This document shows positions 18,585 to 39,133 of a stretch of DNA of 64,000 bases, one piece after another (the stretch's first letter is position 1; each line of letters opens with the position of its first letter). The translations under genes were made by a program, and so were the position numbers. The notes under the pieces were generated by a model. The model worked only from the letters and a program-made list of their open reading frames with translations, did not search any database and was not told where the DNA came from. Source of the DNA: Chamaesiphon sp. (lineage in GTDB: Bacteria > Cyanobacteriota > Cyanobacteriia > Cyanobacteriales > Chamaesiphonaceae). The stretch covers positions 64,001 to 128,000 of the forward strand of contig CBDFFH010000022.1 of the NCBI GenBank assembly GCA_965246715.1. Direction: 5' to 3'.

Positions 18585-20972
18585 ATGAGCGACAATTCTA
18601 GTCAAGAATTAACCACAACTCCCAGTGGCCAGTTAGCACGCAAAAACCCTAAAGCATCTTCCCCAGCTCTAAATACCATTGTTACCGTAGATAACGGTGG
18701 GGACGAAGGCGGTTTGAAGCTAGGTCAAATTGCCAAAGCGATCCAACGACGGTTGTGGATTGTGGTGCTCGTGAATGTTTTGACGATCGGTGCAGCAGTT
18801 GCTTGGCATCGTAGCCGCATGCCTGCATACGAAGGCAGCTTCAAAATACTGATCGAACCCGTTACTGCTGAATCACAAGTAGTGTCTTCACTTAAAGGCG
18901 ATCGGACTACAGTAGAAGAACAAGATCTCGGCAGCGCCCAATTCTCCAAAACTACCCTGGATTATCCAACTCAAATTCAGCTGCTCCTGAGCGATAAAAT
19001 TCTCGGGCCAGTCGCGGGACAACTCAAGTCTACTTATCCAAAAACATCATCCACAACATTGCGGGATGCGCTCAAGATCGCTCGCCAGAAAGAGCCAGCA
19101 GAAACAAAAATTCTGGAAGTTCGCTATCGCTCTGCTTCTGAGAAGGAAGCCAAGCAGGTACTAAATCTGGTTGCCAATGCCTATATTCAATATAGCTTGA
19201 GCGAACGGCAAACCAATGTGCGGCGAGCTGTTAAATTTGTAGAAACCCAACTGCCTAAAGTTCAAGATCAAGTCCGCAAGCTAGAGACAGAGCTTCAAAG
19301 CTTTCGGGAGAAACATCAGTTTATCGATCCCAACACATTGGGAACTCAACTGGGCGAACAACAGAGTGCCATTCAAAAGGAGCAACAGACAACTCAAGTA
19401 GAGCTAGCCAAAACCAAACAACTCTATCGATCGCTCGAACAGCAATTACAACTGCTGCCCAAAGGTGCCGAAGCTGCTTCCGTGCTGAGCGATGCTCCAG
19501 GATATCAACAATTGCTCAAGCAACTTCAAGAGCTGGATGTGGAGTTACAGAGTCAGTCGGCACAATTGACAGACGAGCATCCTCGGATCGTCACGCTGCG
19601 CGAAAAAAGACAAAAATTGTTACCATTGCTGCAACAAAAAGCTGATGAGGCGCTAGGTAACAAGCTAGCTCAGAGCGTCACCAACGGACAGAAACTTCCT
19701 TATCAAAATGCCCTGCGGCAAGATCTGAGCAAGCAGTTTATTGGAGCTGCAACTCAGGTGCAGGTACTAGAAGCTAAACTCAATGGCCTAAACATCGCCA
19801 GTCAAACTTTATCCAGTCAAGCGAGTCAATTACCAGTCGTCACTCGTCAATATGAAAATCTCCAACGACAATTAAAAATTATTACGGAACAGCAGAGTAA
19901 ATTCTTGCAAAAACGCGAAGAATTAACGATCGATGCCGCCCGTCAAGAGGTGCCGTGGGAGCTAATCTCACCTCCTGCCGTCGCTCGGATATCAGCTTCT
20001 AGTTTAGCGAACAGTGTGGTATTAGGTGGGTTAGCTGGTTTGCTATTGGGGGTTGGCGCAGCCCTGATCGTCGAGCGGAGCAACGATGTGATTTATACGC
20101 TCCAAGATCTGCGCGAAGAACTCAATCTGGCGATCTTGGGCGCGATCCCACCCCGCGAAAACGATCTTGTAGATCGCGAGGTTCCTAAGGAAATCAACGA
20201 AACAAGTGGTGCGCTCTTGGAAGATGGTAATCCGAATACGCGAAATTGCTATCGATTTTCACCATTTATCGAGTCGTTCCGCGCCCTAAATTCGCAACTA
20301 CGACTCCTCAATCCAGATACACCAATTCGATCGATAGTCATTAGCTCGTCGATACCGGATGAAGGGAAAACGACTGTAGCGCTCCAACTAGCTCAAGCTG
20401 CTGCGGCAATGGGTCAGCGCGTATTACTAGTCAATACCGACCTTCGCAAACCAAGTTTACAAAATCTTATCGATCGACCGGATCTCCATCATATCCCTGG
20501 TGGCTTGACTGATATTATTGCTGGCAATGCTACGTTAATGGAAACAGTGCGACTCTTGCCCGAGCAAGAAAATTTGTATGTGCTCCTAGCTGGTTCCATT
20601 GCTCTAGATCCCACGAGTATTTTAAGTTCGCAAAAAATGCAGGCACTGATCCTCGATTGCAAACGAAATTTTGACTTGGTTATTTATGATACCGTTCCTC
20701 TCAATTTTGCAGATTCACTCTTATTAATTCCGCAAACAGATGGACTATTAATGGTCGCTAGGCTTGGTAAAGTCGCTCGAGGAGTCTTGCAGAATTCATT
20801 GCAAACATTGGCAATATCAAAAGTTCCCGTGTTGGGTTTAGTTGTAAATACAGTCGATACACAGCCTTCAGGCGTAATGACGTATTATCCAGAGAGTGCC
20901 ATCAGTGACAAGTCAAAAAAATCAAAAATATTTCAAGGGATAAATAAGTTGTATCAAACCCTGAAGAAGTAA
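18585..20972 (+). CDS. wzc: Wzc/GumC-type polysaccharide co-polymerase with BY-kinase domain
   Basis: Two TM helices flanking a coiled coil; ESFRAL, Walker A SSIPDEGKTT, DLRKP, VIYDT. Confidence 0.88.
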   Translation: MSDNSSQELTTTPSGQLARKNPKASSPALNTIVTVDNGGDEGGLKLGQIAKAIQRRLWIVVLVNVLTIGAAVAWHRSRMPAYEGSFKILIEPVTAESQVVSSLKGDRTTVEEQDLGSAQFSKTTLDYPTQIQLLLSDKILGPVAGQLKSTYPKTSSTTLRDALKIARQKEPAETKILEVRYRSASEKEAKQVLNLVANAYIQYSLSERQTNVRRAVKFVETQLPKVQDQVRKLETELQSFREKHQFIDPNTLGTQLGEQQSAIQKEQQTTQVELAKTKQLYRSLEQQLQLLPKGAEAASVLSDAPGYQQLLKQLQELDVELQSQSAQLTDEHPRIVTLREKRQKLLPLLQQKADEALGNKLAQSVTNGQKLPYQNALRQDLSKQFIGAATQVQVLEAKLNGLNIASQTLSSQASQLPVVTRQYENLQRQLKIITEQQSKFLQKREELTIDAARQEVPWELISPPAVARISASSLANSVVLGGLAGLLLGVGAALIVERSNDVIYTLQDLREELNLAILGAIPPRENDLVDREVPKEINETSGALLEDGNPNTRNCYRFSPFIESFRALNSQLRLLNPDTPIRSIVISSSIPDEGKTTVALQLAQAAAAMGQRVLLVNTDLRKPSLQNLIDRPDLHHIPGGLTDIIAGNATLMETVRLLPEQENLYVLLAGSIALDPTSILSSQKMQALILDCKRNFDLVIYDTVPLNFADSLLLIPQTDGLLMVARLGKVARGVLQNSLQTLAISKVPVLGLVVNTVDTQPSGVMTYYPESAISDKSKKSKIFQGINKLYQTLKK

Positions 20973-25368: not shown

Positions 25369-25398
25369 GGTAGGGGCAATTCATGAATTGCCCCTACC
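25369..25398. repeat. Perfect 30-bp REP-like palindrome; contains two perfect IS110 target sites
   Basis: ggtaggggcaattca|tgaattgcccctacc. Confidence 0.9.
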
Positions 25399-25412: not shown

Positions 25413-25545
25413 GGCGTTGCTGAATTAATGTATGAAACGCACAAACAATTTTTGTAGGGGTAATGCCTCGTGCTTACCCCGCATCGATTCAGGGTACTCA
25501 CAAGGGGCACCCCTACAAAAAATCATACCCATATTCAGCAACGCC
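25413..25545 (-). mobile_element. MITE family A, short copy
   Basis: TIRs GGCGTTGCTGAAT/ATTCAGCAACGCC. Flanked by direct repeat aatttggcgtg (25402-25412 and 25546-25556). Reverse complement of the 38953 copy without its internal hairpin module. Confidence 0.85.
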
Positions 25546-29709: not shown

Positions 29710-29916
29710 GTGCTGCTAAGGAGGATGGTCGGATCTAAGTGTTTCGACCATTCGGTGCTAGACGTTGAGGCGAGACTAGCTCAGGCTCACAGACTTTCCA
29801 AAGATCGTGCCTATCGCGATGCCTCGGGACTATTTTTTATTGAAGGCGTTCGCAATTTCGTTCGGTTAGTAGATAATAAATTTGAGCTAGCGACGATTTT
29901 ATTTAGTGAGAAATTG
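29710..29916 (+). pseudogene. 5' fragment of a TrmH/SpoU-family RNA methyltransferase, truncated by MITE A
   Basis: RAYRDASGLFFIEGVRNF resembles the SpoU N-terminal domain; the frame enters the MITE TIR at 29917 and no 3' part follows. Confidence 0.65.
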
Positions 29917-30069
29917 GGCGTTGCTGAATATGGGTATGATTTTTTGTAGGGGTGCTCCTGTCTTGTCGTTTTTTTATTCGGGGGGAACCCCCGAATAAAA
30001 ACGCCGCTTGTGGGTACCCTGAATCGATGCGGGGTAAGCACGAGGCATTACCCCTTGTATCCTAAAGGA

Positions 30070-30282
30070 AGGTCAAAGAGTAAAATCGTAAGACCGAGCA
30101 TCAACAGCAAAAGGGAAAGGGAAATTCGGATTGCCCCTAGGGACACCAAGCCCGTTAAGTAGATCGAATTACCTTAACCTAAACAGTGGAACCAGTCAAA
30201 GCTGGACAGTATCAGAGGTCGTCCCAAACGGGTAAACCTGCATTTACAAGGATAGTTTATCGCCACTAATTGCTGTTGAAGC
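30070..30282 (+). ncRNA. Putative IS110 bridge RNA (ends approximate)
   Basis: Target loop ATTGCCCCT (30130-38) + GTAG (30159-62) closed by aattcg/cgaatt. Donor loop ACAGTATC (30206-13) + TACAAG (30245-50) closed by agtgg/ccact. Confidence 0.85.
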
Positions 30283-30308
30283 AGTCCATTAGCAGATAGG
30301 AACTGGCC

Positions 30309-31301
30309 ATGAGTAATTCAAACGAAGAGTTAGACATACTCGGTATCGACATCAGCAAAGCCAAATTTGACGTAGCCTTACTCAAAAACAACGGCAAAGA
30401 CAAAATCAAAAGCAAGGTATTTGCGAATACCCCAGAAGGGTTTGAGCAATTACAGGAGTGGCTAAACAGCCAAGGAGTAACCAAACTACATGGCTGCATG
30501 GAAGCAACTAGCATTTACGGAAATGCCCTAGCCAGATTTCTAGTTGCAGCAGGATACATCGTAAGTATCGTTAATCCATCCCGTCCAAAAGCATTTGGAC
30601 GAAGTGAATTAAGTCGGACGAAAACCGATCGTGCGGATGCAAAAGTGATTGCCAGATTTGGCGCGGCATTACGCCCAGCACCCTGGACTCCTCCAGCGAT
30701 CGAAGTCGAACAACTTCAAGCTTTGGTTCATCGCTGGGATAGTTTGACTGCCATGCAGCAACAAGAGCAGAATCGACTCGAAACGGTTGACCCAATTTTA
30801 GTCGAGGCGATCGCCGCACATATTGACTTCCTCAAGCAACAAGTTGCTGCGACTCAACAACTGATTCGCGACCATTTCGATCGATCCCCCACTCTTAAAG
30901 CTCAACGAGATTTACTGATTTCGATGCCAGGTATTGCCGCCGCTACTGCAACGGTAATACTAGCCGAAATTCGCGATGTGGCTACCTTTGACAGTGCCGA
31001 CCAGCTTGCTGCTTTTGCGGGTTTGACCCCGCATGAGTTTTCTTCTGGTTCCTCTGTTCATGGCAAACCCCGTTTGTCTAAGATCGGTAACGCTCGTTTG
31101 AGAAAGGCTCTCTATCTGCCTGCGATTGTTGCTCGTCGCGATCATCCCTTGATTCAGGTTTTTTGCGACCGTCTGTTGGCTAAAGGTAAGTCGAAAATGG
31201 CGATGATTGGTGCTGCTATGCACAAACTTCTGCGCCAGGTCTTTGGTGTGCTGAAATCTCAACAACCTTTTGACCCGAATTTTCTTTCTCTTCTCTCTTG
31301 A
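30309..31301 (+). CDS. IS110-family DEDD recombinase/transposase
   Basis: GIDISK (D), MEATS (E), KTDRAD (DD), and AGLTP...SSGSS...SKIGNARLRKAL with the catalytic Ser; intact 330 aa. Confidence 0.96.
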   Translation: MSNSNEELDILGIDISKAKFDVALLKNNGKDKIKSKVFANTPEGFEQLQEWLNSQGVTKLHGCMEATSIYGNALARFLVAAGYIVSIVNPSRPKAFGRSELSRTKTDRADAKVIARFGAALRPAPWTPPAIEVEQLQALVHRWDSLTAMQQQEQNRLETVDPILVEAIAAHIDFLKQQVAATQQLIRDHFDRSPTLKAQRDLLISMPGIAAATATVILAEIRDVATFDSADQLAAFAGLTPHEFSSGSSVHGKPRLSKIGNARLRKALYLPAIVARRDHPLIQVFCDRLLAKGKSKMAMIGAAMHKLLRQVFGVLKSQQPFDPNFLSLLS

Positions 31302-31303
31302 CT
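31298..31303 (+). promoter_or_regulatory. -35 half (TTGACT) of the circle-junction promoter; the -10 half TATCCT is at 30058-30063
   Basis: Joining the ends gives TTGACT-ctcaagacagtatcttg (17 nt)-TATCCT. Confidence 0.75.
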
Positions 31304-31404
31304 CTCAAGACAGTATCTACCGATGTTTTCAGCGATGTTTAGATCGCCGATCGTACTTGCATTCAGCAACGCTCGTAATTTCTCAATCTGAATACTCGAT
31401 CGTG

Positions 31405-31824
31405 TTAATAATTGCGGGTGGTGGAAGAACAAGCCAATGTTTCTGTACTACTGTTGTTGGCGATAATAGCTGATGCTTTCGCTTCATTTTTGGTATCGAT
31501 TAAATACATATTTTTGCGGTACTTGATGAGTGACTGTCCGCGTAACCCACTGCTCAGAAAGCGATATCCTTGGTCGATCGCTTGATATTTACCATTTTCA
31601 TCTTTGGCAGTATAGTAACCATTGGCTCTGAGCGAGATTTCTCCCGTTGCCGTAGTCTTGCTGCCGCATTGAAACTTGCCGATGATATTACTGCCAGTTG
31701 GTAGACTGGGTGTTGCTTGTGGACTCGTGGTTGGCTGGGGCTGCTGCGATCGGGCGGAAACAGTGACAAGACTAGCTAAAATCGTTAGCAAGCTAGCAGA
31801 TGCAATGGAGATCGATTTATTCAT
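31405..31824 (-). CDS. Hypothetical secreted protein
   Basis: Signal peptide, P/T/Q linker, small domain with two Cys. Confidence 0.6.
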   Translation of the reverse strand: MNKSISIASASLLTILASLVTVSARSQQPQPTTSPQATPSLPTGSNIIGKFQCGSKTTATGEISLRANGYYTAKDENGKYQAIDQGYRFLSSGLRGQSLIKYRKNMYLIDTKNEAKASAIIANNSSTETLACSSTTRNY

Positions 31825-32082
31825 GTTGGTGTTAATCGGTTTGATGTGCTGTTAACAACCTGGCGTTGGCGTTGGTACGCACAAAGCTTACATATACGCG
31901 CAGCGAGCATAATATCGGCGGATATTTTTGCCTTCGACGAATGGGACGGCAATATCGAAAGTCCGCATTCAGCCATGCGGCAAAGGCGACGCTACACGAT
32001 CGGGATTATCTCTATGTTAGTACTTCTGCTAAGTTAGTTTGTTTGACGATCGGCAAGTCAGATCCCGAACTGATGCTAACTA

Positions 32083-32165
32083 ACGTGAGTTCGGGATAAG
32101 AGGAGCATGGAGACTGAAGTCTCGGCTACTGGTGCGGAGCCAATATCCTTAACCCGAACTGATGC
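32083..32165. mobile_element. MITE family B, short copy
   Basis: ACGTGAGTTCGGG...CCCGAACTGATGC flanked by TAACTA (32077-82 and 32166-71); an extra right end at 32064-32076. Confidence 0.7.
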
Positions 32166-32279
32166 TAACTAGCAACTTAAGTTAGTGCCCGTGCAGTGCC
32201 AAGCTAATGAATTTTCGCAATAATCCGAGTAACATGATAATGAGCCACTTACTCATTCCCATCGAGTCCGAATCAATTT

Positions 32280-38952: not shown

Positions 38953-39133
38953 GGCGTTGCTGAATATGGGTATAATTTTTGTAGGGGTGCTCCTGTCTTG
39001 TCGTTTTTTTATTCGGGGGGAACCCCCGAATAAAAACGCCGCTTGTGGGTACCCTGAATCGATGCGGGGTAAGCACGAGGCATTACCCCTACAAAAATTG
39101 TTTGTGCGTTTCATACATTAATTCAGCAACGCC
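38953..39133 (+). mobile_element. MITE family A, complete copy (empty IS110 site)
   Basis: 13-bp TIRs, 8-bp TSD caaaagtt (38945-52 and 39134-41), internal hairpin ttttattcggggg/cccccgaataaaa. Confidence 0.9.

Follow-up and report, generated by a model that had tools for sequence, protein, structure and literature searches.

Locus architecture and recombinase

The window analyzed here, a stretch of 64,000 nucleotides from a Chamaesiphon sp. assembly, carries an IS110-group insertion element that sits in the target hairpin of an IS1-family MITE and is present in four full copies in the host genome (G000). The features at the locus, with their window coordinates, are as follows.

25370-25397: free hairpin with two perfect targets
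25413..25545, minus strand: empty 133-bp MITE, target unoccupied
29710..29916, plus strand: TrmH/MRM3-like methyltransferase gene, N-terminal part, with an 8-bp duplication at its end (29909-16)
29917..30053, plus strand: left part of a 182-bp IS1-family MITE with the target hairpin
30047..30053, plus strand: left target half ATTACCC, a G:T-wobble variant of the guide-encoded ATTGCCC
30054..31318, plus strand: IS110-group element, CT core to CT core, 1,265 bp
30056..30063, plus strand: right donor half at 30056-60; -10 box predicted for the circle-junction promoter at 30058-63
30070..30280, plus strand: predicted bridge RNA, ends approximate, with a 5' stem-loop
about 30112-30182, plus strand: target-binding loop of the predicted fold
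about 30186-30269, plus strand: donor-binding loop of the predicted fold
30130..30138, plus strand: putative left target guide (LTG), ATTGCCCCT
30159..30164, plus strand: putative right target guide (RTG), GTAG, and target-loop handshake AT
30206..30213, plus strand: putative left donor guide (LDG), ACAGTATC
30242..30252, plus strand: putative right donor guide (RDG), ATTTACAAG (30242-50), with discontinuous pairing proposed from IS621 geometry, and donor-loop handshake GA
30309..31301, plus strand: IS110 recombinase, 330 aa
31298..31318, plus strand: right end, with a predicted -35 box (31298-303), the left donor half (31310-16) and then the CT core
31319..31373, plus strand: right flank, the target AC and then the end of a different MITE of another original locus
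38953..39133, plus strand: empty 181-bp copy of the MITE type occupied by the element

The recombinase carries PF01548 and PF02371 and scores 242 bits against NF033542 (cut-off 140). Its N-terminal PF01548 region is a DEDD RuvC-like domain with four acidic residues, its C-terminal PF02371 domain holds the catalytic serine, and the residues D14, E65, D107, D110 and S246 align to D11, E60, D102, D105 and S241 of IS621. Among solved proteins it matched ISCro4 (E 5.5e-76) and IS621 (E 6.8e-73), with no other solved relatives. The first-pass annotation had called this DEDD and serine recombinase intact; the frame is open throughout and all five catalytic residues are aligned, so that at sequence level both the gene and the element are intact. 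The cyanobacterial host that it proposed agrees with two PsaA/PsaB matches, 2,789 HIP1 octamers and the named close homologs, which are cyanobacterial.

The element is bounded by CT dinucleotides at 30054-55 and 31317-18, and its left end is 253 bp long versus about 17 bp for the right. The 60 nt to the left of the core occur seven times in the host genome; five of these sites are empty and hold a single CT, and two run into the element. The same single CT was found in an empty G000 site orthologous to the sister element L041. An exact 52-mer search for the empty sites of six sister copies in the close relative G410 recovered 0/6, probably owing to strain divergence, after which one clean empty site was read directly.

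The target hairpin and its IS1-family carriers

The target ATTGCCCCTAC occurs 76 times in the host genome against 3.3 expected, and its G-to-A variant ATTACCCCTAC 39 times against 3.6 expected. The opposite GTAG arm lies upstream in 91 of the 115 target sites, and 68 of the 115 are at most 200 bp from an IS1-MITE terminal repeat of the GGCGTTGCTG type. Duplications of at least 8 bp accompany 40 of 59 terminal-repeat pairs, and one element of 827 bp, whose terminal repeats are related to these, has an IS1 transposase gene. The target can therefore be read as a GTAG hairpin that is often borne on IS1 MITEs; since 68 of at least 115 targets lie near such a terminal repeat, continued IS1 activity would provide fresh landing sites, most of them intergenic. 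No matching duplication accompanies the other 19 terminal-repeat pairs; a single mismatch or overlapping calls account for some of them, and others have unrelated flanks, a hint of further rearrangements.

GTAG repeats have been described in cyanobacteria, and the REP families treated in the consulted part of that report are likewise GTAG-tagged palindromes, whereas many of the copies here lie inside IS1 MITEs (PMC3733652). A REP-associated tyrosine transposase was considered as the mover of the target and found no support: of six PF01797 matches three were checked, and the two best were without flanking GTAG arms.

A separate class of hairpin inserts of about 46-49 bp is found at 29959-30007 of the window and genome-wide (275 candidate matches, background included). 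These inserts start with TGTCTTG, end with CGC, have diverse interiors, show no duplication and form tandem and nested arrays. Their reading as miniature IS110s was rejected because many do not have CT at each end and the donor is absent from all of them; they resemble Elhai's small dispersed repeats. The motif CAAGACA is common to the end of these inserts and to the right end of the IS110 element, and in G410 one insert is fused to a right-end remnant via CAAGACA.

Copies of the element and exchanged flanks

The four full copies (C22, which is the window copy, C47, C15 and C43) differ at six variable positions, and one of them has an added insert. Donor position 12 is changed in two of the four (C47 and C15), and the same change spoils the -10 box.

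The flanks of the window copy belong to different original loci. To its left lies the N-terminal part of the TrmH-like methyltransferase gene, of which the partner duplication and the in-frame remainder are found on the right-hand side of C15; G410, G409 and G404 have the gene in one piece. The two window flanks are 425 kb apart in G410, in the same orientation; there the window right flank (1.06 Mb) adjoins the left flank of C47, and the right flank of C47 adjoins the left flank of C15. A search of G410 with the C15 left-flank piece returned repeats only. From these positions, the flanks of three copies (C22, C47 and C15) are read as cyclically exchanged. The insertion site that the first-pass annotation had reconstructed from the two sides is consequently a hybrid, through rearrangement or misassembly; the guide reading built on it is unaffected, since the right side contributes only AC, which is present in all four copies.

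For the exchange itself, homologous recombination with conversion and misassembly are weighed at odds of about three to two. An assembly error across the 1.27-kb repeats, in place of a real three-way rearrangement, is thus a serious though somewhat less favored account. It is consistent with the cyclic pattern of the exchange, which involves near-identical repeats in an assembly of 55 contigs, with the same inner sequence that C47 and C15 bear on both sides of the element, and with the orientation of the G410 flanks, from which a simple crossover would excise a circle. The three private substitutions of C15 argue that the copies were separately resolved, the synteny of C22 with G410 is broken elsewhere too, and the shared inner tract would also be compatible with crossover plus gene conversion. 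As one element is left at each joint, neither excision nor donor-donor bridge recombination would fit.

A further alternative, which we hold to be unlikely, is that the architecture is real and the element immobile here, its copies having spread as passengers of IS1 MITEs or through homologous recombination. C43 and the window copy have the same MITE left flank, C43 being bounded by an 8-bp duplication; the flanks of three copies are exchanged; a right-end remnant at the window right flank is also present in G410, so that this insertion may be old; and the donor and -10 box are altered in C47 and C15. Against this, the frame is open with all catalytic residues in place, the four copies vary at merely six sites, the many empty copies of the same MITE would make independent insertion easy, and related copies are found in several repeat contexts.

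Several derivatives accompany the full copies. Two remnants (C22:145007 and C41:88690) retain a complete predicted bridge-RNA region with the gene truncated after about 44 codons, and could supply RNA in trans; their G410 counterpart (L048) has one guide base changed, and the upstream GTAG arm is absent from the target of C22:145007. A 110-bp internal-deletion element with both ends and with neither bridge RNA nor gene is present in one copy per genome (G000:C54 about 20140-20250 and G410:C3:365235-365361), has an identical joint in runs X1 and X2, and its right flank starts with CC, not AC. The G410 element L034 contains a stretch of 1,135 bp with 100% identity to contig C4 of G000, which suggests that the insertion sequence was recently shared. 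In the C43 copy (G000:C43:136100-136620, L067) the two loops, which still fold and are 220 nt further apart, are separated by a 215-bp MITE that has a 5-bp duplication; the terminal repeat of this MITE has 328 genome matches, and one such element lies at about 32075-32170 of the window.

Predicted bridge RNA and its guides

Folds, a consensus structure and a covariance model (R1) place a putative bridge RNA in the left end of the element. The four guide motifs were located where the first-pass annotation had put them, namely ATTGCCCCT at 30130-38, GTAG at 30159-62, ACAGTATC at 30206-13 and TACAAG at 30245-50, and the stems it had described for both loops recur when 30056-30308 is folded in silico (-71.4 kcal/mol, z -3.28, with 1 of 200 shuffles as stable). 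The predicted structure presents two loops with LTG, RTG, LDG and RDG in order, and the motif spacing is 29/47/36 versus 27/46/34 in IS621. The placement of the guides in open loops holds only in part for the RNA without protein, because the free-RNA fold shows some pairing between guides: RTG is paired to LTG nucleotides 2-5, and three LDG nucleotides to three of RDG.

TACAAG, taken earlier as the right donor guide, is better read as the discontinuous ATTTACAAG with two U flipped out. In the IS621 structure, according to the consulted parts of two reports, RDG pairs discontinuously in this way (PMC11208160, PMC11208158). The first T of TACAAG falls on the flipped-out position and is T, C, G or A in homologs whose donor is unchanged. 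As for the handshakes, AT pairs with donor positions 6-7, and the G of the donor-loop handshake with target position 7. Of 25 parsed rows, 24 have a first donor-loop handshake base complementary to guide position 7; the remaining row (L019) had been misparsed and pairs by eye. L062 is an exception, in that its donor-loop handshake and target position 7 do not pair.

An unfitted alignment of seven rows, two of them nearly identical, contains 47 base pairs, nine of which have two-sided changes; pair counts on the model-fitted alignment (89.6% paired) are biased towards the model. The model built from the seven rows gave 28 matches in 26 sources, with Escherichia coli and Deinococcus plasmid elements among the weakest scores. 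A search of 29800-31600 against Rfam gave 0 matches.

The match of eight in nine between the first-loop guide and its site, with a G:T wobble, is present as claimed; by itself it is weak, being equalled in 1,124 of 20,000 random 253-nt windows (5.6%), and the case therefore rests on order, spacing and covariation. That it is eight and not nine follows from the target repeat having a G-to-A variant (39 sites) beside its exact form (76).

Guide and target covariation among relatives

The follow-up suggested in the first-pass annotation, a covariance model with a check of guide/target covariation, was borne out: across relatives the left target guide tracks the insertion site. The 44 guide and left-flank pairs, in 16 guide classes, comprise 28 that match at 7/7, 12 at 6/7, three at 5/7 and one at 1/7. 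Loci with no left end parsed (L010, L014, L015), unparsed loci (L021, L060, L061), L039, L040, L042, L047 and L048, and loci duplicating G000 copies were left out of this set. The mean match of guide to flank is 6.07 of 7 for cognate versus 2.46 for non-cognate pairs, a value reached by 0 of 200,000 permutations; this test overstates the case, because kin are non-independent and many guides end in CCC. The commonest mismatch is G-to-A (6 of 18).

L054 (guide CCCGCCC) and L009 (ATTATGC) are sister loci in a 100/99 clade, with each element located in the target of its own guide. L062 and L064 show RTG varying together with the right flank, and L019 and L064 show LDG varying together with the right end, so that covariation extends to guide and donor. 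In the G410 sister family, which has 72% DNA identity and the same guide as the window element, all six copies examined are in perfect targets, and close relatives with proteins 67-82% identical to the window recombinase bear about ten different guides. From this natural retargeting we infer that the element would be programmable.

One locus departs from the pattern. The guide GAAACCCCT of L013 mismatches its own site, and the element sits in the target of the L023 guide. L013 and L023 are co-resident in genome G089 and have the same donor; an in-trans insertion via the shared donor is the probable explanation, and a chimera would also fit. A second IS110 family in the host genome (five copies, in C5, C14, C34 and twice in C15, one of the C15 copies interrupted) has 56% protein identity, a longer left end, the guide CCCGCCCCT and the same donor as the first, and targets another GTAG-type hairpin.

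It can be argued that the matches in the left end are due to chance, or to part of a host repeat captured by an ordinary 5' leader whose RNA guides nothing, given the frequency of eight-in-nine matches in random windows, the guide being part of a common repeat and the empty Rfam search. Sixteen guides that each track their own flank strongly disfavor this account, as do a layout and donor motifs identical to those of IS621, and we regard it as highly improbable. Membership of the IS1111 group, with the guide RNA in a long right end, draws on the same protein family and is refuted by the end lengths, the 7-17 bp subterminal inverted repeats of that group also being absent and the nearest solved proteins being those of IS621 and ISCro4.

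An IS621-type bridge recombinase with a bispecific RNA, as had been proposed, agrees with the protein family and the end structure as well as with the guide layout and the guide/target covariation. With a probability of roughly 0.93, the locus would be an IS110 insertion sequence of the IS621 type, intact, with a bridge RNA of two loops likely encoded in its left end; this RNA would steer the element's own recombinase to insert it at the CT of ATT(G/A)CCC-CT-AC, an arm of an abundant hairpin repeat.

Predicted junction promoter and proposed mechanism

When the two ends are joined in silico, a sigma70-like sequence pattern TTGACT-17-TATCCT is rebuilt. A similar pattern was found in 15 of 15 joined ends examined, the pattern being permissive and scored without a null control. 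In the linear locus no promoter-like site lies upstream of the predicted RNA, and two were found elsewhere versus 1.7 expected. A short subterminal repeat of 2-3 bp at the donor is complementary at two of three positions here and perfect, with changed letters, in the second family, L020 and L062. No circle back-joint was found in the contigs of 8 of 24 runs, which is uninformative since contigs drop rare forms, and the RNA runs X20 and X24 hold merely low-depth pieces of relatives, unable to reveal a small RNA.

By analogy with IS621, weak read-through would yield the RNA and the protein, and the element would be excised or copied out as a circle. Its joined ends would form the sigma70-like promoter with a 17-nt spacer and raise the level of bridge RNA; two recombinase dimers would bind the target loop and the donor loop, and serine-linked strand exchange at CT would insert the element. 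Read-through expression and excision of IS621 are described in the portion of PMC13626964 consulted, and the excised form is possibly a single-stranded copy (10.64898/2026.08.31.748434, in its available part). An IS621 tetramer with composite active sites and handshake pairing is reported in the sections consulted of PMC11208160 and PMC11208158.

A broader scenario is speculative and, in our estimate, improbable: a near-constant donor with diverging guides would allow one bridge RNA to move other elements, the MITE-split loops of C43 would work, and insertions into about 115 MITE-borne hairpins would seed real multi-way rearrangements.

Comparison with known systems and significance

IS621 of Escherichia coli (PDB 8WT6; PMC11208160, PMC11208158) has in common with the window element the catalytic D/E/D/D/S residues, the CT core and the long left end. 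The donor 14-mer, LDG, RTG and target-loop handshake AT are identical to those of the wild-type RNA (PMC11208160 supplement). IS621 also shows a GTAG-hairpin target, a tolerated G-to-A change at target position 4 and a junction promoter; it is known to target REP and prefers a natural target with A where the guide has G at position 4. In contrast, its LTG is ATCGGGCCT as opposed to ATTGCCCCT here, the scaffold stems differ, RDG here has A for the G of IS621, giving a Watson-Crick pair at donor position 12, and the target here is often on IS1 MITEs. A blastn search of the element against Escherichia coli genomes gave no match, and the IS621 protein is a distant one, plasmid-borne enterobacterial homologs having about 45% identity.

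ISCro4/IS622 (PDB 9T56; bioRxiv 10.1101/2025.05.14.653916) is the best solved match to the recombinase. Its engineered split loops work, according to the part of the preprint consulted, which parallels the C43 copy; its activity has been shown in human cells. ISPpu10 is, like the present element, an IS110 element in a repeated stem-loop tied to large rearrangements; the accessible text on it already describes a need for a target hairpin as well as links to rearrangement (bioRxiv 10.64898/2026.03.19.712850).

The founding bridge-RNA study analyzed 5,511 RNA-target pairs, as given in the sections consulted, and the IS621/ISCro4 row of its tree table is represented by a cyanobacterial protein (PMC11208160); 72 orthologs were screened in a later preprint, by its consulted part (bioRxiv 10.1101/2025.05.14.653916). 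The guide, target and donor context of the window element was not found in the searched supplement parts of PMC11208160. A literature search on bridge RNA, IS110 and cyanobacteria gave none on such elements among the matches listed, and a cross-phylum editing preprint lists five other phyla without any term for cyanobacteria. The mechanism is already published, and cyanobacterial proteins of the IS621 clade are already in the published tree; because the mechanism is established, the present finding extends knowledge without changing it.

Overall, the locus would offer a readable and probably native bridge recombinase for cyanobacteria. Its close relatives amount to a natural series of retargeted guides on a single scaffold, which shows the tolerated mismatches and the course of guide evolution.
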